From assembly GCA_035546635.1 (NCBI GenBank), contig DASZWJ010000019.1, forward strand, positions 229,386-293,385: a stretch of DNA of 64,000 nucleotides. The letters run 5' to 3'. The position numbers and the translations under genes were made by a program. Below are positions 3,712-59,048 of this stretch, piece after piece. Within the stretch, counting starts at the first letter, position 1; every line of letters begins with the position of its first letter. The stretch comes from Gammaproteobacteria bacterium (GTDB taxonomy: Bacteria; Pseudomonadota; Gammaproteobacteria; JAURND01). The notes beneath the pieces are model-generated. The model did not search any database. It had not been told where the DNA came from and saw only the letters and a list, made by a program, of their open reading frames with translations.

Positions 3712-5280
3712 ATGGAAACGGAAGCCTCATCTTCATCCTTTAAATCATCTTTACAGCTTGTCCAACCTCAAGATACCATTGCAGCCGAATCGACTACAGC
3801 GGCTCAACACCAACTACTTGAAATCACTACCCACGTTGCGGCTCAGCTTCGCCAATTGCTAGGTCGACCTTTACGCGTAGTGGATTTAGGATGTGATGAT
3901 GGTTTATTCAGCCTGCAACTTGCCTGCGAGGGCGATGAAGTCATAGGTGCTGACTCAAATCAAGCACACATCTTAACCTGCCAAGCACGGGCCAAAGAAC
4001 TTGGCCTCACCACAACTTTTGTGACAGCCGACATCAGTAATTGGCAGAATTGTGGGAAATCATTTGACCTGGCGCTGGCATTTAATTTGACGCAGTTATC
4101 TGATTTGACGAAGATAGAGAAAACTGTACAAGCTTTATCACAGCGGGCAACCATCGCACTGATTACATCGTCTTGGCAGAATACACAAGAGAATACTTCT
4201 AATCCATTACCAGCTAACCCCTTTCAATTACTTCGACCCTATGCCTATCTTGAAAAATTAACAGAATACCCATCTAGCGTCACTGACATTAAAAACCCTG
4301 TTTTTTTCTGCAGCAATGCCTATTGGTACGCCAAGGGGGCTATGCAACGTTTTGATTATTGGACAGAACAATCACGCCAACGCTTTGAAAAAGAAGTGCA
4401 TAATAATATTTATCCGCATCGGCAGACACGTCGTTACTATTTTAATGATACCCGGATGTTGAAGCATTATCGCTTAACTGGGGATAAAATTAAAAGCAAC
4501 CGCAATGAAATTCAAGCTGAAATTAATTTTATTAACAATAATATGGATAAAATTAACACACTACCACGTATGCAAGCTTACAATATAAGCGAAGATGATG
4601 CCTGGATGTTGCGAGAAAAATTTTCTGGTATTAGATTAAGTTGTGCCATTTCTGACGGCATGGATTATGACCCTAAAAAAATTCTGGTCAGCATTTTACA
4701 GCAGTTGGCCTTATTTGAGCGTCATGGTTTTTATCAGAATGATCTTAGGCCGTGGAATTTTATTTTATCTGAGAATGATACGATATTTTTAATCGATTAT
4801 GGCACTGTCAGCCAAACACCCCGCGATTCATTATCCAGAAAAAAAAGTGTATTCATGAGCTTTTTAGTGTTGGCTCATGAAATTATTTATAGAAAAGTGC
4901 TACTTGTCAGGCAATTCAGCCCAGTTTTTATAAGCCCAAGATATTTTCCTGACAATTATGCCACGTGGTTATACCATCTACTTAGTACTGATTTTAGTCA
5001 GTGGAGTTTTGCATTATTTTTAGAATTGCTTGACCGCAAAGAATTACCCGATAGACATTCTAGAACAGCAGCTAATAATATGCTGTTGTGGCTTGACGAA
5101 ATAGATCAGCACTTGGGCAATCCTAAATTTAAAATGCAGCATTTTCAAAAGTATTTTATTAAAAAATTACATCTGGAAGTTACTAAAGCTGGTTGGAAAA
5201 GCAAGCTTACTACCTTTGTAAATAAGTTTTTACTATTATTGCCGCGCTTTAACCAAAAACCTAATCCTGAGCTTGAGTAG
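3712..5280 (+). CDS. Bifunctional SAM-dependent methyltransferase / eukaryotic-like kinase fusion protein, WbdD-like architecture (paralogue A)
   Basis: The N-terminus carries methyltransferase motif I (LRVVDLGCDDG ... DEVIGAD) and a post-I acidic residue. The C-terminus carries a kinase catalytic loop HGFYQNDLRPWNF (HxDxxxxN) and a DFG-like IDYG. The RBS AGGGAG lies 9 bp upstream. It shares about 35-40% identity, at the same domain positions, with the ORF at 55198-56775. Confidence 0.6.
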   Translation: METEASSSSFKSSLQLVQPQDTIAAESTTAAQHQLLEITTHVAAQLRQLLGRPLRVVDLGCDDGLFSLQLACEGDEVIGADSNQAHILTCQARAKELGLTTTFVTADISNWQNCGKSFDLALAFNLTQLSDLTKIEKTVQALSQRATIALITSSWQNTQENTSNPLPANPFQLLRPYAYLEKLTEYPSSVTDIKNPVFFCSNAYWYAKGAMQRFDYWTEQSRQRFEKEVHNNIYPHRQTRRYYFNDTRMLKHYRLTGDKIKSNRNEIQAEINFINNNMDKINTLPRMQAYNISEDDAWMLREKFSGIRLSCAISDGMDYDPKKILVSILQQLALFERHGFYQNDLRPWNFILSENDTIFLIDYGTVSQTPRDSLSRKKSVFMSFLVLAHEIIYRKVLLVRQFSPVFISPRYFPDNYATWLYHLLSTDFSQWSFALFLELLDRKELPDRHSRTAANNMLLWLDEIDQHLGNPKFKMQHFQKYFIKKLHLEVTKAGWKSKLTTFVNKFLLLLPRFNQKPNPELE

Positions 5281-52520: not shown

Positions 52521-52865
52521 TCAATTTGCCTCACTCTCTTTTCTACACCCAACAGTCGCCAGTGCATTTTCAACTTTATTAAGCATACGAGCTGTTACTG
52601 AACTCTGACGTTCCAATTTGCTGATATAAGCCTGGGATACCCCTAAACAATTTGCTAAATGTTCCTGAGTAATCCCAGCTTTGATACGTGCTAGAGCTAC
52701 TGGGTTATTGGAATAATCTTCCGATTCAAAACATACATATCCATTTTGATTCTTTAATTGTTGCAGTTGTGCATTAATTTCCGCTCGCAAAGTATAGTAA
52801 ATACTCACAGGTAGTAGGGCATATTCATCTTTGCCAGACATTGATTTAATAATTTGTAAATCCAT
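52521..52865 (-). CDS. XRE-family helix-turn-helix protein (C-terminal HTH; antitoxin-like, orphan)
   Basis: The HTH ITQEHLANCLGVSQAYISKLERQ lies in the C-terminal half. The N-terminal ~50 aa were not recognised. No adjacent toxin ORF. Confidence 0.5.
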   Translation of the reverse strand: MDLQIIKSMSGKDEYALLPVSIYYTLRAEINAQLQQLKNQNGYVCFESEDYSNNPVALARIKAGITQEHLANCLGVSQAYISKLERQSSVTARMLNKVENALATVGCRKESEAN

Positions 52866-53078
52866 TTTATTTCCCCATAAATTTAATCTTTACTAAAGAT
52901 ACTCCATAACCGCTACAAGGCTACCATTGACCTACCCATAAACAATGGTAAGATTCTCTTAGTATACATGGATGATTATAGGTTATATTTAGTTATAATA
53001 CCAATCGTCTGCATCTATTAGATGTATTTTTTAGGATATTTTGACGGGCAACTGCCCATCTCCATAAGGAATATAACC

Positions 53079-54251
53079 ATGACCACCTTAACCGGATTAG
53101 ATCTGTTTGAACGAGAATGGCCTTCGAGCTTTAACGCGGCAAGAGTAGGCCTATTGGTACATCCTTCTTCCGTAAATAAAAATCTTACCTATGCTGTAGA
53201 CCTATTTTTGCAATCTAAAAAATTTAAAGTGACTGCATTATTTGGCCCCCAACATGGTATACGCGGTGAAACACAAGATAATATGATTGAATGGGAAGGC
53301 TTCCAAGATCAAAAAACTGCATTGCCGGTATTTAGCTTATACGGAAAAGCTCGCAAACCTACCCCGGAAATGTTAAAAAATGTCGATGTTTTGGTAATTG
53401 ATCTTCAAGATGTAGGGGCTCGCTACTACACTTTTATCTGGACTATGGCGCTTTGTATGGAAGCCTGCGCTGAACTTAACAAGTCCATACTCATTTTAGA
53501 CCGACCTAATCCCATCAATGGGCGTGATATTGAAGGGCAGATTTTAGATCCGCATTACAGCTCTTTCGTGGGGCTGCGTCCACTGCCGATACGCCATGGG
53601 ATGACAGTAGGGGAAATAGCAAGCTACTTAAAAGAAACCTTTTATCCCAAACTAGATTTAAAGGTAATCCCTATGCAGGGTTGGAAGCGTGATATGGCAT
53701 TTGATGAGACAAAATTGCCCTGGGTCATGCCATCACCTAATATGCCGACACTGGATACGGCTTTTGTTTATCCAGGTATGTGTCTATTTGAAGGCACACA
53801 GCTAAGTGAAGCGCGTGGCACCACGCGACCATTTGAGATTTTCGGTGCCCCCTTCATCGACCCGGATAAATTAGTAAAGCAGCTAGATGCCTTTAAATTA
53901 CCCGGTGTGAAATTTAGACCAAGCTATTTTTTACCTACATTCCAAAAACATGCAAATACTGTGTGTGCCGGTGCACAAATTTATGTCACAGATAGAGCTC
54001 AGTATAAATCCGTACAAACAGCGATAGTGATATTAAAAGTGATTCACGACTTGTATCCTTCCCAGTTTGCTTGGAAAAATCCACCTTATGAATATGAGGA
54101 GGAAAAAATGCCCATTGATATACTCGCCGGGAATGATGAATTAAGAACGACTATAGAACAAGGAAAGGACATTTCACAGCTGGAAACCAGCTGGCAAAAT
54201 GAATGCGAGAATTTTAATAACCAGGTCAGGAAGAAATTTTTAATCTATTAA
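53079..54251 (+). CDS. DUF1343 family protein (NamZ-like exo-beta-N-acetylmuramidase family)
   Basis: Family signature region …WVMPSPNMPTLDTAFVYPGMCLFEGTQLSEARGTTRPFE… The start is set at MTTLTGLDLFE (53079). Confidence 0.65.
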   Translation: MTTLTGLDLFEREWPSSFNAARVGLLVHPSSVNKNLTYAVDLFLQSKKFKVTALFGPQHGIRGETQDNMIEWEGFQDQKTALPVFSLYGKARKPTPEMLKNVDVLVIDLQDVGARYYTFIWTMALCMEACAELNKSILILDRPNPINGRDIEGQILDPHYSSFVGLRPLPIRHGMTVGEIASYLKETFYPKLDLKVIPMQGWKRDMAFDETKLPWVMPSPNMPTLDTAFVYPGMCLFEGTQLSEARGTTRPFEIFGAPFIDPDKLVKQLDAFKLPGVKFRPSYFLPTFQKHANTVCAGAQIYVTDRAQYKSVQTAIVILKVIHDLYPSQFAWKNPPYEYEEEKMPIDILAGNDELRTTIEQGKDISQLETSWQNECENFNNQVRKKFLIY

Positions 54252-54265
54252 GATGTGTTGTATCT

Positions 54266-55201
54266 ATGAATATATTTATACCTGCTGCGGGATTTGGTTC
54301 GCGCTTATCCCCCATTACCTCCCGTATACCTAAACCTTTACTGCCTATTGTTGGCAAACCCTTGCTAGGATTATCGCTGGAAAAACTCAACCGCCTTAAA
54401 CCTAATCAAATAGGTATAAATCTTCACTATCTGCGCGAAGCCTTAACCCAATGGGTTGCGCATTCGCCGTTGCGCAATAAAATACAGCTATTTCCAGAAG
54501 AAACGATTTTAGGTTCTGGTGGCGCACTGAACAATGCCTATTCTTTATTGTGCCAAGATCACTTTCTGGTTTATAACAGTGATGTGCTATGTGATCTAGA
54601 TTTAGAATGGTTAATGCAACAACATTTGAATTCTGAAAACCTAGTCACACTCACCACCTGTCAGCACCCTAAATTTCCTCATGTTAAAGCGAATGTTGCT
54701 ATTAATTCTGAAGGTTTTTTTCAAGGCGTTGACAAAAAGCTTATTCCTTACGCTAAAGTAGCACAATACGTGGCTTATACCAGTATCGCGATGTATTCCC
54801 CTGAGTTTTTACAATTTTTACCTGCAGGAAAATCCAGTGTGCTAGATGCCTGGTTGACAGTAGCCGCCAAAGGTTATCGCATCGGCACCGTAGATATCAG
54901 CGCTTATGACTGGAATGATATAGGCACTCCTGCCGCCTATTTCTCAGCTGCTATGACTAATTTAAAAAGTACTGGTAAATCGGTTTATATCCATCCTTCT
55001 GCCAATGTCAATCGCACTGCGGTCATAGAAGGAGAGGTGATTATTGAAAGATATGCGGTAGTCGAGTCGGGGGTCAGTATTAAAAACTGCTTACTGCTAC
55101 CTGGTGCTGAGTTAATAAAAAACCGGCGCTATGAAAATAGTATCATAGGGCCCGGTTATGAGCTGCCAATGCTGTCATCCTTCGCTTGCGCTCAGGACTA
55201 A
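54266..55201 (+). CDS. Sugar-1-phosphate nucleotidyltransferase (NTP_transferase domain plus C-terminal left-handed beta-helix)
   Basis: MNIFIPAAGFGSRLSPITSRIPKPLLPIVGKPLL is the RmlA/GlmU/MurU-type G-x-G-x-R-L…K motif. The C-terminus carries hexapeptide-like repeats. The gene lies 14 bp downstream of the DUF1343 gene, so the two are probably an operon. Confidence 0.75.
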   Translation: MNIFIPAAGFGSRLSPITSRIPKPLLPIVGKPLLGLSLEKLNRLKPNQIGINLHYLREALTQWVAHSPLRNKIQLFPEETILGSGGALNNAYSLLCQDHFLVYNSDVLCDLDLEWLMQQHLNSENLVTLTTCQHPKFPHVKANVAINSEGFFQGVDKKLIPYAKVAQYVAYTSIAMYSPEFLQFLPAGKSSVLDAWLTVAAKGYRIGTVDISAYDWNDIGTPAAYFSAAMTNLKSTGKSVYIHPSANVNRTAVIEGEVIIERYAVVESGVSIKNCLLLPGAELIKNRRYENSIIGPGYELPMLSSFACAQD

Positions 55202-56775
55202 GAAACCAACGGTCGATTAAGATAGCGCGAAAATTTAGAGAAGCGCACTAAAAATTTATTATACAGAAAAATATTTATTAATTTTTGCTGCAAAGTATTT
55301 TTTCTTGATTCTTGACTTAGCTTCTTAATAACTACTTTTTCAAAATATTTAAGCTTCATTTCCCTTTTTGCTATCAATCCTTCAATTTCATTTAACCAAG
55401 GTCTTAAAGAATTATTCAGTTCAGCTGAAATGATTTTCTGCTCACCCTCGTGAAATAGCTTTAAAAACAGGCTAAAACTCCATTGTTGCGGGTGTGTTGA
55501 TAATATTCCCTGAATTAAATTTAAATAAATATCAGGATAATTTTCTGCCTTTAAGAACATAGGGCTCAAATTCCTGATCGTGACTATTTTTCTGTGAGTT
55601 ACTTCATAGATAAATACTAAAAATGCTAGAAAAATATTTTTAGGCACCATCACATTACGTGCTGCATCTTCAATAGCGCCAAAATCAATGAGCCGTACCG
55701 AACCCTGGGTAGAAATCAGCACATTCCAAACGCGTAAATCATTATGATAAAGACCATGCGCTTCCAAGGCGGCCAATTGTTCCAGAATGTCACCAATAAT
55801 CACATTAGGGTCATAATCCAGTCCCTTGATTATCATGGTGCTTAATAAAATCCCAGGTATTTTTTCACGCAACACCCAACCGCTGTCTTCATGCATTTCA
55901 AAACCCAACAAGCGCGGCAATACATGAGTCACCGAAAATCCACTTTGCAAAAATTTTATTTCACCTACAAGTTCTTCACGGTTGCTCTCTGCTTCATCAC
56001 CTGAGAGTTGAAAATTTTTAAGCATCGTATTAGTGGTAAAATAATAACGTCGTGAGTCTTTATGTGCATCATTCGTAAATTCATGTGAAGTATTAGTCCA
56101 TGAATCAAAATGCGTTAGCTCTTCATTAATATACCAATAATGATTGCTGCAAAAATAGATAGGACGCTGAATTTTTGACAGGTGGGTATGATGGTGTGAT
56201 ATTTGCTGAAAATAAGCAAATTGATCCAATAATTCATAGGGCTGGTCCGGTAGGGAAGTAGCCCATTTTTCAGGCTCTTCTCTAAGAGCGGTTTCGATAA
56301 GACAGGCTGCCGTTCTTTGTGCTAAAAGGCCAATGAAATTTCGAGTAGTCTCAAATCCGATGTGATGACACAGATGATGAAAAACGCTAAGTCCTATGAT
56401 TAAATCAAACTCTTTAATGGGCAAAGCGTCAATTCCGGCTACACAGTCAGCAACTACAAAAGTCGCAGGCAAGGACAAGACTTTAGATAACTCTGTGCAA
56501 AGCTCCACATTTTGCGGAACTATATCAATACCATATACCTCATCACCAACAGCTGCCAGGTTAAAACAGAAGAAACCCTGAGCGCATCCTATATCTAAAA
56601 TCCGCAATGGACGCTGCAACTCAGAACGCAATTTATCAGCAACACTCTGTACGATCCACCATCTATCATAACAGCTGCGCGATGAATTCCCATCAAATTC
56701 ATTAAAACCATAAATTGGTTGATAGATTTCTGGCAAATTACCAATTAGATATTTTATCTGTGAGTTCGATTCCAT
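55198..56775 (-). CDS. Bifunctional SAM-dependent methyltransferase / eukaryotic-like kinase fusion protein, WbdD-like architecture (paralogue B)
   Basis: Methyltransferase motif I LRILDIGCAQG…DEVYGID and a kinase catalytic loop HGLYHNDLRVWNVLI with a canonical DFG (LIDFGAIED). It is collinear with the ORF at 3712-5280 (shared blocks FCSN.YWY, RRYYF, QWSF.LFL). It is AT-rich relative to the housekeeping neighbours. Confidence 0.6.
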   Translation of the reverse strand: MESNSQIKYLIGNLPEIYQPIYGFNEFDGNSSRSCYDRWWIVQSVADKLRSELQRPLRILDIGCAQGFFCFNLAAVGDEVYGIDIVPQNVELCTELSKVLSLPATFVVADCVAGIDALPIKEFDLIIGLSVFHHLCHHIGFETTRNFIGLLAQRTAACLIETALREEPEKWATSLPDQPYELLDQFAYFQQISHHHTHLSKIQRPIYFCSNHYWYINEELTHFDSWTNTSHEFTNDAHKDSRRYYFTTNTMLKNFQLSGDEAESNREELVGEIKFLQSGFSVTHVLPRLLGFEMHEDSGWVLREKIPGILLSTMIIKGLDYDPNVIIGDILEQLAALEAHGLYHNDLRVWNVLISTQGSVRLIDFGAIEDAARNVMVPKNIFLAFLVFIYEVTHRKIVTIRNLSPMFLKAENYPDIYLNLIQGILSTHPQQWSFSLFLKLFHEGEQKIISAELNNSLRPWLNEIEGLIAKREMKLKYFEKVVIKKLSQESRKNTLQQKLINIFLYNKFLVRFSKFSRYLNRPLVS

Positions 56776-57284
56776 GGATTTTGCTCCTAAAATGTAACAG
56801 TCATATGAAAGAGGAAAGCAAGTTTCCCCTGAAACAGTGAGGAAGTTTTTACAAATCTTCTTGGATTGCCATGCTCTTAAAAAGAAGATGAACCATCCCT
56901 TTAGATTACAATGGTTTATTGTATGATATAAGTTTTCTTTAAGGAAATTAAAATTACAGTTTTTAGCTATCTTTAAATTTTTAATCGGTATGTAATCCTA
57001 TGACTTATTAAAATGTCACAATATTTTCAAATTTAATGTAACTTTAATTAGGAGTTGCAATGCTTTCTTTTCGTGTTCATCCTAGTAAAAGCAAAGGATA
57101 ACCCTATGAAAGTGCCATTGAGCATTGCTAAAATCCACATACCGCTGTATAATAAAAACTCATTTTTAACCCTCTCTAGGACGATTCAAATGATATTGCT
57201 TGGTTAAATCGCTCTCAGTAAGACCGGTCAATTCATTGCTATTTGGCTGGAATTTTATACATCGATTTTTTACCAGGTCATATT

Positions 57285-59048
57285 ATGAATCTGCCTACAT
57301 CAAATTTTGCCTTTATTTTTTACTTCGTCCGTCAACAATGGTTGCGGTTTCTAGCCTTATTCGCCATATCAATGGTTTGGGCGGTTAACGATGCGATGTT
57401 GCCTTATTTCTTGAAACGGATAGTCAATACTCTGCACGACTACACCGGCCCTCCACAAGGTGTCTATTTGGCAGTCAAGGGCATATTAATTATCTTACTG
57501 ATATTCTGGATCGTGACAGAAATATTAAATCGCATTCAAGGTATTAACCAAATTTATACTTTCCCACGTTTTCGCGCTAACATTCGCGCCTCGGTATTTA
57601 ATTACGTAAAATCACATTCTCATGAATATTTTTCCAACCAATTTGCCGGAAATCTCGCCAAAAAGCTGGCTGACTTACCGCACAGCTGTCAAAACATTAT
57701 GGAGATTATTTCCTTTCAATTTATTACAGCAACTGTAGGCATCAGCATGGTGTTGACCATGATGTGGCTTACCAAACCACTGTTTGCTGTGATTCTATTA
57801 ATTTGGCTCAGTTTTCATTTGGGATTAACCATCCTTATTTTACGTCGCGCTAACGTACTATATGAAACCCATGCTGAATCCGTTTCCGTATTAAGCGGAA
57901 AAATTGTCGACATATTTACGAATATTTTAAATGTGCGTCTATTCGCGCGTAGTCGATATGAATCCGAATATTTGCAACAATTCCAACAAGATGAAATCAC
58001 TAAAGCCAGAAAAGCCATGTGGCTAATTGAGTTAATGCGTATGGGTCTTGGAATAAATGGATTATTCCTCATATTCGGTATGATTTTTACTTTACTCTAC
58101 GGCTGGGCGCACGGTTGGGTAACGCTGGGCGATTTTACTCAAGTGAGTATGCAGTCATTCTGGTTATTAGGTTTGATTTGGTTCGTCAGTTTTCAAATGA
58201 CTGTGTTTGTGCGGGAGACCGGCACCATTAGCGATGCATTGAGTTTAATTAAAAAAAGCCACGATCTATCGGACACTGAAAATGCCCATCCTATTGCCAT
58301 TCCTTGCGGTCAAATCATTTTTAATCAGGTCACTTTTGGTTACAAAAGAAATCGTCCGATATTTCAAAATTTGAATCTTGTCATTCAACCTGGAGAGAAA
58401 ATTGGTTTAGTTGGATTTTCCGGCTCAGGAAAGTCTACTCTGGTGAATCTCATCTTGCGTTTCTACGACTTACAATCTGGTCAGATTTTAATTGATGGTC
58501 AAGATATCGCTAAAGTCAGTCAAGAATCTTTACGCGCTCAAATCGCCATGATTCCACAAGATCCCGCATTGTTTCATCGCAGCTTAATGGAAAATATCCG
58601 CTACGGCCGTTTGGATGCAACAGACGAAGAAGTCTTTAAAGCCTCAGAGCTGGCACACTGCCATGAGTTCATTGAAAAATTGGATTGTGACTATGAGTCT
58701 CTAGTCGGAGAACGCGGCATTAAATTATCCGGTGGTCAACGACAACGCATTGCCATCGCTCGCGCCATCTTAAAAAATGCGCCGATTCTAATTTTAGACG
58801 AGGCAACTTCTTCACTGGATTCAGTTACAGAAAAGCTGATTCAAGAAAGCCTGGAGCATTTAATGCAGGGTAGAACTACGATTGTAATTGCACACCGTTT
58901 ATCTACATTAGCTGATATGGATAGAATTTTAGTCTTTCATAAAGGAGAAATCGTCGAACAGGGTACAATTGCAAACTTACTGAATGTAAATGGCCACTTT
59001 GCGAAATTATGGCATATGCAATCCGAAGGATTTTTGCCAGAGAGTTGA
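57285..59048 (+). CDS. ABC exporter, fused permease-ATPase (MsbA/multidrug type), second copy in the window
   Basis: Six TM helices plus an NBD with Walker A GFSGSGKST, signature LSGGQRQR and Walker B ILILDEATS. The start is set at MNLPTSNF (57285). Confidence 0.85.
   Translation: MNLPTSNFAFIFYFVRQQWLRFLALFAISMVWAVNDAMLPYFLKRIVNTLHDYTGPPQGVYLAVKGILIILLIFWIVTEILNRIQGINQIYTFPRFRANIRASVFNYVKSHSHEYFSNQFAGNLAKKLADLPHSCQNIMEIISFQFITATVGISMVLTMMWLTKPLFAVILLIWLSFHLGLTILILRRANVLYETHAESVSVLSGKIVDIFTNILNVRLFARSRYESEYLQQFQQDEITKARKAMWLIELMRMGLGINGLFLIFGMIFTLLYGWAHGWVTLGDFTQVSMQSFWLLGLIWFVSFQMTVFVRETGTISDALSLIKKSHDLSDTENAHPIAIPCGQIIFNQVTFGYKRNRPIFQNLNLVIQPGEKIGLVGFSGSGKSTLVNLILRFYDLQSGQILIDGQDIAKVSQESLRAQIAMIPQDPALFHRSLMENIRYGRLDATDEEVFKASELAHCHEFIEKLDCDYESLVGERGIKLSGGQRQRIAIARAILKNAPILILDEATSSLDSVTEKLIQESLEHLMQGRTTIVIAHRLSTLADMDRILVFHKGEIVEQGTIANLLNVNGHFAKLWHMQSEGFLPES

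Follow-up and report, generated by a model that had tools for sequence, protein, structure and literature searches.

Which pathway would bring together, at a single locus, a muramidase-family gene, a sugar-1-phosphate nucleotidyltransferase gene and a methyltransferase-kinase gene, and do all three genes belong to it? The question is raised by a 64,000-nt stretch of gammaproteobacterial DNA (the window, with positions counted from its first letter), where a NamZ-like gene of the GH171/DUF1343 family and a nucleotidyltransferase gene are met by a convergent gene for a WbdD-like methyltransferase-kinase (Table 1). An initial annotation had proposed that the three genes form one salvage or sugar-nucleotide modification pathway, with the methyltransferase-kinase as its APH-type kinase. 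In the anabolic recycling route, AmgK and MurU convert N-acetylmuramic acid (MurNAc) to uridine diphosphate-MurNAc (UDP-MurNAc) (PMC8054146; PMC11957156). In published surveys, NamZ goes together with the catabolic MurQ route and is for the most part not found alongside the AmgK/MurU route (PMC8054146), and NamZ homologues are seemingly absent in Legionella (PMC11957156). The present locus points in the opposite direction, as it leads to a NamZ-family protein tightly coupled to an enzyme of the MurU/AmgK type, for which a scan of one genome per species gave no fewer than 592 matches. We favour, with reasonable though far from full confidence, the reading that the NamZ-like gene and the transferase gene form a two-gene operon, a kinase-less derivative of a cassette widespread in Nitrospirota, which serves MurNAc salvage with a kinase encoded at another site of the genome.

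A conserved cassette in Nitrospirota

The scan for the NamZ-like clade took one genome per species, and the best 80 of its matches, all from Nitrospirota, were examined; Nitrospirota homologues are 61-69% identical to the NamZ-like protein of the window. Downstream genes were counted in the 56 of these 80 loci whose downstream sequence extends for 3.2 kb or more. In 54 of the 56, a transferase and an APH domain lie directly 3' of a 61-68% identical NamZ-like gene and in its orientation, joined in 53 of the 54 cases in one open reading frame (ORF) of about 630 aa, and the transferase match begins a median of about 21 bp beyond the end of the NamZ-like match. When the neighbouring ORFs of all 80 loci were clustered, the two cassette families alone were recurrent (77/80 and 68/80 loci), every other family being present at 10 loci or fewer; neither ampG, nagZ, anmK nor any other gene family recurs near the cassette at these loci. 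Since only these two families recur, the cassette persists while its surroundings change, and a coupling so tight and so independent of context argues that the NamZ-like protein and the transferase(-kinase) act in one pathway. Judged by its sequences, the Nitrospirota cassette would consist of a cytoplasmic, Gln-type GH171/NamZ-like enzyme and a bifunctional protein that joins a MurU-like transferase to an AmgK-like anomeric sugar kinase. The initial annotation had compared the locus with the AmgK/MurU route, and for the NamZ-like gene and the transferase a functional pairing tied to a route of that type is borne out by the 54 of 56 loci and the AmgK-like fusion. Co-occurrence across genomes was confirmed in part: the pair was present everywhere examined, while the trio with the methyltransferase-kinase gene was found only in three close gammaproteobacterial loci.

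The same cassette layout was observed on the independent metagenome contigs L005, L006 and L090. In several long-read metagenome assemblies (L005, L006, L089), the NamZ-like and transferase-kinase genes are broken into adjacent ORFs; as the pieces align continuously, these breaks are probably assembly frameshift errors rather than gene fission.

Identity between the gammaproteobacterial NamZ-like sequences and the closest homologues in the database, which are largely labelled as Nitrospirota, is 65-69%, and this distance is about the same as that between the most divergent of those homologues themselves. In the tree, 36 of 40 bootstraps place the gammaproteobacterial clade inside the range of the Nitrospirota sequences. 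The nesting and the identity levels together suggest that the cassette was gained by an ancient horizontal acquisition.

We found no published description of a NamZ/GH171/DUF1343 cassette with AmgK/MurU or with their fusion in the searchable literature, which is incomplete, so that this is no proof of novelty; to that extent the remark in the initial annotation that the genes had not been described as a unit stands. The locus is a version, without the kinase, of a NamZ-like plus MurU/AmgK-like cassette that is apparently undescribed.

The nucleotidyltransferase and its missing kinase domain

We were curious to know to which family the transferase of the window belongs. It matches NTP_transferase (PF00483, E = 3.1e-19) in Pfam, and the N-terminal GxGxR...K signature (PAAGFGSRL...PKPLLPI) is kept across its clade. 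Its top NCBIfam family is MurU (NF045761, 100.2 bits, cutoff 250; NF045697, 45.3 bits, cutoff 370), followed by models for archaeal GlmU-like proteins (91.5 bits) and mannose-1-phosphate guanylyltransferases (90 bits). On these scores the protein belongs firmly to none of the three families. Firm membership among the mannose-1-phosphate guanylyltransferases was considered and rejected, since the scores are comparable to those of MurU and all lie below threshold. The firm clustering with such enzymes that the initial annotation had regarded as fatal to its hypothesis was thus not seen, MurU ranking first, albeit far below its cutoff. The protein is also longer than MurU, as had been noted (311 aa against about 225-240 aa for the single-domain enzyme). 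A C-terminal beta-helix had been claimed as well; the domain models detect this tail only weakly and below cutoff (GMPPB_C, 17.4 bits versus 39; Hexapep, 17.3 versus 27), but the alignment with the best solved-structure match, human GMPPB, covers residues 4-295 and runs through it.

The GMPPB match, full length and including the beta-helix, could be taken to mean that the transferase supplies a nucleotide-diphosphate sugar, e.g., GDP-mannose, for a surface polysaccharide capped by the WbdD-like enzyme, with the NamZ-like gene as an unrelated neighbour. The mannose-1-phosphate guanylyltransferase score close to that of MurU points the same way, and WbdD enzymes do work in polysaccharide pathways (PMC3482155). 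Nevertheless, we regard this explanation as highly improbable, because the proteins nearest to the transferase carry a fused AmgK-like kinase and their genes are coupled to NamZ-like ones, because glycosyltransferase and Wzm/Wzt genes were not found nearby, and because the transferase and WbdD-like genes are convergent.

These relatives were found in an exhaustive homologue search of 1.84 billion representatives, in which only 63 proteins reached E <= 1e-30. One of the best matches is a close relative; the others are for the most part proteins of 600-700 aa that align with the transferase over their first ~300 residues only. Their C-terminal halves are PF01636/APH domains (Pfam, about 1e-20) with AmgK as the best NCBIfam match (56-80 bits), and MurU was the best NCBIfam match for the N-terminal PF00483 halves of four of the five fusions scanned (about 80-110 bits). 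The window transferase and its close relatives (300-311 aa) end at the same linker from which the fusions run on into "LIGTGGSDRKYYR...". In a neighbour-joining tree, the stand-alone transferase clade is nested inside a clade dominated by fusions, which is suggestive of, and consistent with, loss of the kinase domain in the stand-alone proteins. Besides, a metagenome scan with the alignment of the stand-alone transferases gave as best match a fusion-type locus, 42% identical. No APH remnant was found 3' of the transferase gene or elsewhere within the window.

The ratio of nonsynonymous to synonymous substitution rates (dN/dS) between the window transferase and its 85%-identical relative in L089 is 0.093, from which we infer that the transferase is a functional stand-alone enzyme under purifying selection and not a decaying fragment. 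Compared with the AmgK-MurU recycling systems of Pseudomonas putida and Legionella pneumophila (lpg0296/lpg0295), the cassette likewise combines an anomeric kinase with a nucleotidyltransferase, AmgK and MurU being the top families for the two halves of the fusion. It differs in scores far below the family cutoffs, in the additional beta-helix domain of the transferase, in the fusion of both activities in one polypeptide with the transferase first, and in its coupling to a NamZ-like gene, while in the window version the kinase is missing altogether. The initial annotation was therefore right that this is not a straightforward AmgK/MurU pair: the system is either fused or kinase-less, carries a beta-helix tail and has a NamZ-like partner.

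The Gln-type NamZ-like protein

The NamZ-like protein of the window is covered at full length by both Pfam domains of the family (NamZ_N, PF07075, E = 6.8e-88; NamZ_C, PF20732, E = 1.7e-56), and phmmer aligns it with two solved Bacteroides structures, 4k05 (E = 2.2e-76) and 4jja (E = 2.1e-58). Both were again the top Foldseek matches of the AlphaFold model (E = 5.8e-24 and 1.8e-16), with a TM-score (template modelling score) of only ~0.46 because the model is low in confidence (mean predicted local distance difference test score 60.8, with the active-site loops below 50).

The putative catalytic Glu92 of Bacillus subtilis NamZ lies at the tip of beta-strand 2 (Müller et al., PMC8054146). Opposite the GPEHG and SPEHG of 4k05 and 4jja, the window protein reads GPQHG, and in its model beta-2 is predicted to span residues 49-56, which places Gln58 at the C-terminal tip of the strand; the equivalence of Gln58 and Glu92 is based on the solved-structure alignments and on these predicted strand positions. 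All 120 closest homologues and all 80 genome loci carry Gln at this position. It is followed throughout the Gln-type clade by an invariant remodelled loop, GETQDNM(I/V)EW, in which the acidic residues E64, D67 and E71 (loop 64-72) are newly conserved. The clade has 52 conserved positions of its own, including the extra arginines R167, R172, R250 and R306, and shares 54 conserved positions with the Glu-type structures, among them His59 and the DRPNP motif. The conserved C-terminal-domain arginine (Arg279 of B. subtilis NamZ) is kept as R246; this residue (ARGTT) aligns with GRGTT of 4jja, the only one of the two solved structures that has it, and is invariant in the clade. The initial annotation had named a lack of the NamZ catalytic residues as a finding that would count against it, and the proposed Glu is indeed absent, with Gln58 in its stead, in the whole clade. 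Since the exchange is clade-wide and under strong conservation, the missing Glu marks a new, presumably cytoplasmic subfamily rather than a dead gene.

As to location, homology to the mature NamZ domain starts at residue 5, and the members of the clade measure 388-410 aa with no N-terminal extension. In the absence of such an extension or a signal peptide, the clade is presumably cytoplasmic, whereas the NamZ enzymes so far characterised are secreted or periplasmic and carry signal peptides. A cytoplasmic location fits a partnership with cytoplasmic nucleotide-sugar enzymes. In comparison with the GH171 exo-beta-N-acetylmuramidases (B. subtilis NamZ, NamZ1 and NamZ2 of Tannerella forsythia, and 4k05 and 4jja of Bacteroides fragilis), the two-domain architecture, the strong homology, the Arg279 equivalent and many core motifs are shared, whereas the Gln for Glu exchange, the remodelled loop and the missing signal peptide set the window protein apart, as does the tie of its gene to an anabolic transferase/kinase rather than to murQ or nagZ.

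What would an enzyme with Gln in place of the proposed catalytic carboxylate do? It may act as a phosphorylase that converts a beta-MurNAc glycoside to MurNAc-alpha-1-phosphate, so that the transferase alone completes the route and the kinase becomes dispensable. The Gln in every member of the clade, the remodelled and invariant loop behind it and the four clade-specific arginines all suit such an activity, as known switches from hydrolase to phosphorylase, in GH65 and GH130, likewise combine a lost catalytic base with newly gained basic residues. The strong selection on the kinase-less transferase would be accounted for as well. We nevertheless consider a phosphorylase quite unlikely: in Nitrospirota the Gln-type enzyme almost always stands beside a kinase domain, which argues for a free sugar as its product, and Glu92 is itself only putative as the catalytic residue (PMC8054146). 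Alternatively, the NamZ-like protein could be catalytically inactive and bind muropeptides or sugars as a partner of the transferase-kinase, either as a sensor or as a substrate-delivery subunit. The Gln in place of the proposed catalytic Glu speaks for this, and the very high identity of 61-69% across phyla fits a constrained binding or protein-interaction surface. Such a role seems similarly doubtful to us, given that the protein retains the 54 positions of the Glu-type structures, including His59 and DRPNP, as well as R246, and that the conserved acidic loop (E64, D67, E71) could provide a carboxylate.

The convergent WbdD-like methyltransferase-kinase

If the transferase has lost its kinase domain, could the adjacent methyltransferase-kinase (hereafter protein B) have taken its place? 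In agreement with the initial annotation, protein B carries methyltransferase domains of the S-adenosylmethionine-dependent type (about 1e-10) in addition to a kinase, for which the Pkinase match is just below threshold (30.1 bits versus 31.7), and this architecture is that of WbdD. Residues 7-469 align with residues 5-474 of the Escherichia coli O9a WbdD structure 4uw0 (E = 2.2e-91), which covers both catalytic domains, with the Trp of the catalytic loop and the DFG motif both retained. Protein B is thus a clear WbdD homologue, and its database homologues come from Xanthomonas, Stenotrophomonas and Pseudomonas, some of them annotated as O-antigen chain-terminating methyltransferase/kinase. 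WbdD, which terminates O-antigen chains, modifies the last mannose of a lipid-linked polymer at the 3-OH, first by phosphorylation and then by methylation, and its residues 460-708 form the C-terminal coiled-coil, membrane- and WbdA-binding region (PMC3482155). Although the two proteins align end to end over their methyltransferase and eukaryotic-like kinase domains, protein B is shorter than WbdD (525 versus 708 aa), with only ~55 residues past the kinase domain and most of the coiled-coil region missing. It also differs in lying outside any O-polysaccharide/ABC (ATP-binding cassette) transporter cluster and in having several scattered paralogues. Near its gene lie the NamZ-like pair, an MsbA-type ABC exporter, a major facilitator superfamily (MFS) transporter and a small methyltransferase, and Pfam annotation of the neighbourhood revealed no glycosyltransferase or Wzm/Wzt genes.

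Similarity of protein B to the AmgK type is slight. It scores 16.6 bits with APH (PF01636; cutoff 23.2), no AmgK model is found among the best 25 of its 26 NCBIfam hits, and it matches the fused APH domain over 24 residues of the catalytic loop only.

The naming of protein B as a paralogue implied a second copy, paralogue A, which is indeed present. Paralogue A lies between ybeY and ftsK, and polysaccharide genes are not nearby. The WbdD-like family is multi-copy in this lineage: two copies are found within the window, and a related assembly has two or more (L087 8001-9533). A third copy, in a related assembly, sits among unrelated genes. All of these copies are without the long coiled-coil and none is inside a polysaccharide gene cluster.

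The block of NamZ-like gene, transferase and convergent WbdD-like gene is kept in all three gammaproteobacterial loci for which context is available (the window, L089 and L003), and all three genes resemble those of the window to a similar degree, with identities of about 85-88% for L089 and about 67-74% for L003. As the identities of the three genes track each other while the flanking genes differ, and as the WbdD-like gene abuts the exact site of the kinase-domain loss, one could imagine that protein B replaces the lost AmgK-like domain and that the three genes constitute one salvage or sugar-nucleotide modification unit. We hold this to be very unlikely. The homology spans both catalytic domains of WbdD, an enzyme that targets the 3-OH of a polymer's terminal mannose and not an anomeric hydroxyl (PMC3482155), and no similarity to the AmgK/APH family was seen outside the catalytic loop. 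Moreover, the gene is transcribed convergently, there are at least two or three WbdD-like paralogues per genome in unrelated contexts, and none of the 80 Nitrospirota cassettes has such a gene. The family of protein B, the orientation of its gene, the existence of paralogues and the lack of such a gene in the ancestral cassette thus argue that protein B is not the anomeric kinase, and the corresponding assignment in the initial annotation is not supported. The WbdD-like gene is a neighbour specific to this lineage and probably lies outside the salvage module; a lineage-specific functional link between it and the pair may exist.

A proposed route for MurNAc salvage

Three independent signals, namely the GH171 homology, MurU as best match of the transferase and AmgK as best match of the fused kinase, converge on a predicted role in the salvage of muramic acid or a related amino sugar. 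In the route that we propose, the NamZ-like enzyme would free MurNAc, or a close amino sugar, in the cytoplasm from an imported cell-wall fragment, the kinase would then make the alpha-1-phosphate, and the transferase would yield a UDP-sugar that is fed directly into peptidoglycan synthesis. In the gammaproteobacterial lineage, the kinase domain would have been lost and the transferase kept under selection, so that another source must provide the phosphorylation, the simplest being a separate gene of the AmgK type that lies beyond the window. L. pneumophila has a separate AmgK, and by analogy supply in trans would be the simplest reading for the missing kinase.

Several observations speak against a kinase-less salvage pair. 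The kinase of the pathway is not visible within the window, and the proposed catalytic Glu is absent from the NamZ-like protein, so that hydrolase activity is not assured. The MurU and AmgK scores are far under the equivalog cutoffs (100 versus 250 and <=80 versus 550), and the sugar could therefore be other than MurNAc. The WbdD-like gene stays beside the pair in three of three loci although the flanks differ, which leaves room for a functional link. Finally, the trees are neighbour-joining trees with limited taxa, and the co-occurrence sample comprises a single phylum, picked by similarity to the query. Taken as a whole, the initial interpretation keeps its pair and loses its kinase.

A bolder version, which we judge unlikely, would credit the Gln-type protein with a new activity, as a MurNAc-alpha-1-phosphate phosphorylase or a hydrolase opening 1,6-anhydro-MurNAc, in a compact and hitherto unnoticed shortcut of peptidoglycan-sugar recycling with the MurU-like/AmgK-like protein; such a shortcut would be common among Nitrospirota and would have passed horizontally to a gammaproteobacterial lineage in which the kinase became dispensable. 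Should the salvage pair that we favour hold true, it would represent a third, compact layout for muramic-acid recycling, with a GH171 subfamily of altered active-site chemistry and with single-polypeptide kinase-transferase enzymes that are possibly useful for the metabolic labelling of peptidoglycan. Existing MurNAc probes and fosfomycin-rescue assays make these proposals directly testable.

Layout of the locus and neighbouring genes

The layout given in the initial annotation, with its three ORFs, the 14-nt spacer and the 4-bp overlap at the stops, was reproduced in full. The transferase ends with TAA at 55199-55201 and protein B with TAG at 55198-55200 on the opposite strand, so the stops overlap and the ORF coordinates share 4 bp. 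For the NamZ-like gene, the ATG at 53079 is preferred to an upstream ATG at 53022 because an AAGGA ribosome-binding site lies ~9 nt ahead of it, and the NamZ-like homologues begin at the same position. A spacer of 14 nt would imply operon-type coupling of the NamZ-like gene and the transferase, and a sequence scan found no terminator-like site between the two. A scan for promoters and terminators gave counts at chance level and is uninformative on transcription units. Nothing unusual was seen in the base composition over the locus.

Table 1. Features of the locus and of the second WbdD-like copy in the window.
Feature	Position	Strand	Remarks
NamZ-like (GH171/DUF1343) gene	53079..54251	+	390 aa; Gln-type, without signal peptide, presumably cytoplasmic
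Gln58 codon	53250..53252	+	GPQHG, not GPEHG; equivalent to Glu92 of B. subtilis NamZ, proposed as catalytic
Spacer between NamZ-like gene and transferase	54252..54265	+	14 nt
Sugar-1-phosphate nucleotidyltransferase	54266..55201	+	311 aa; short beta-helix tail; kinase-less member of the MurU-like/AmgK-like fusion family
WbdD-like methyltransferase-kinase B	55198..56775	-	525 aa; convergent
XRE-type helix-turn-helix protein	52521..52865	-	Divergent from the NamZ-like gene; HTH_3, E = 7.1e-08
WbdD-like methyltransferase-kinase paralogue A	3712..5280	+	36.6% identity to B over 492 aa

The XRE-type helix-turn-helix gene may encode a local regulator; its arrangement, divergent from the NamZ-like gene, is also found in L089, not in L003. 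The MsbA-type exporter is a fused ABC protein (57243-59048, + strand) encoded between the WbdD-like and MFS genes. At the equivalent position in L003 it is missing, a difference that reflects a lineage-specific insertion or deletion. Elsewhere in the window, an ORF of 522 aa (9240-10808, + strand) between rdgC and the RNase E gene is without a Pfam match at E <= 1e-4. In the relatives, large Sel1-repeat and leucine-rich-repeat proteins are encoded close to the loci (L089 597-3527; L087 11102-12403), which hints at a host-associated lifestyle.

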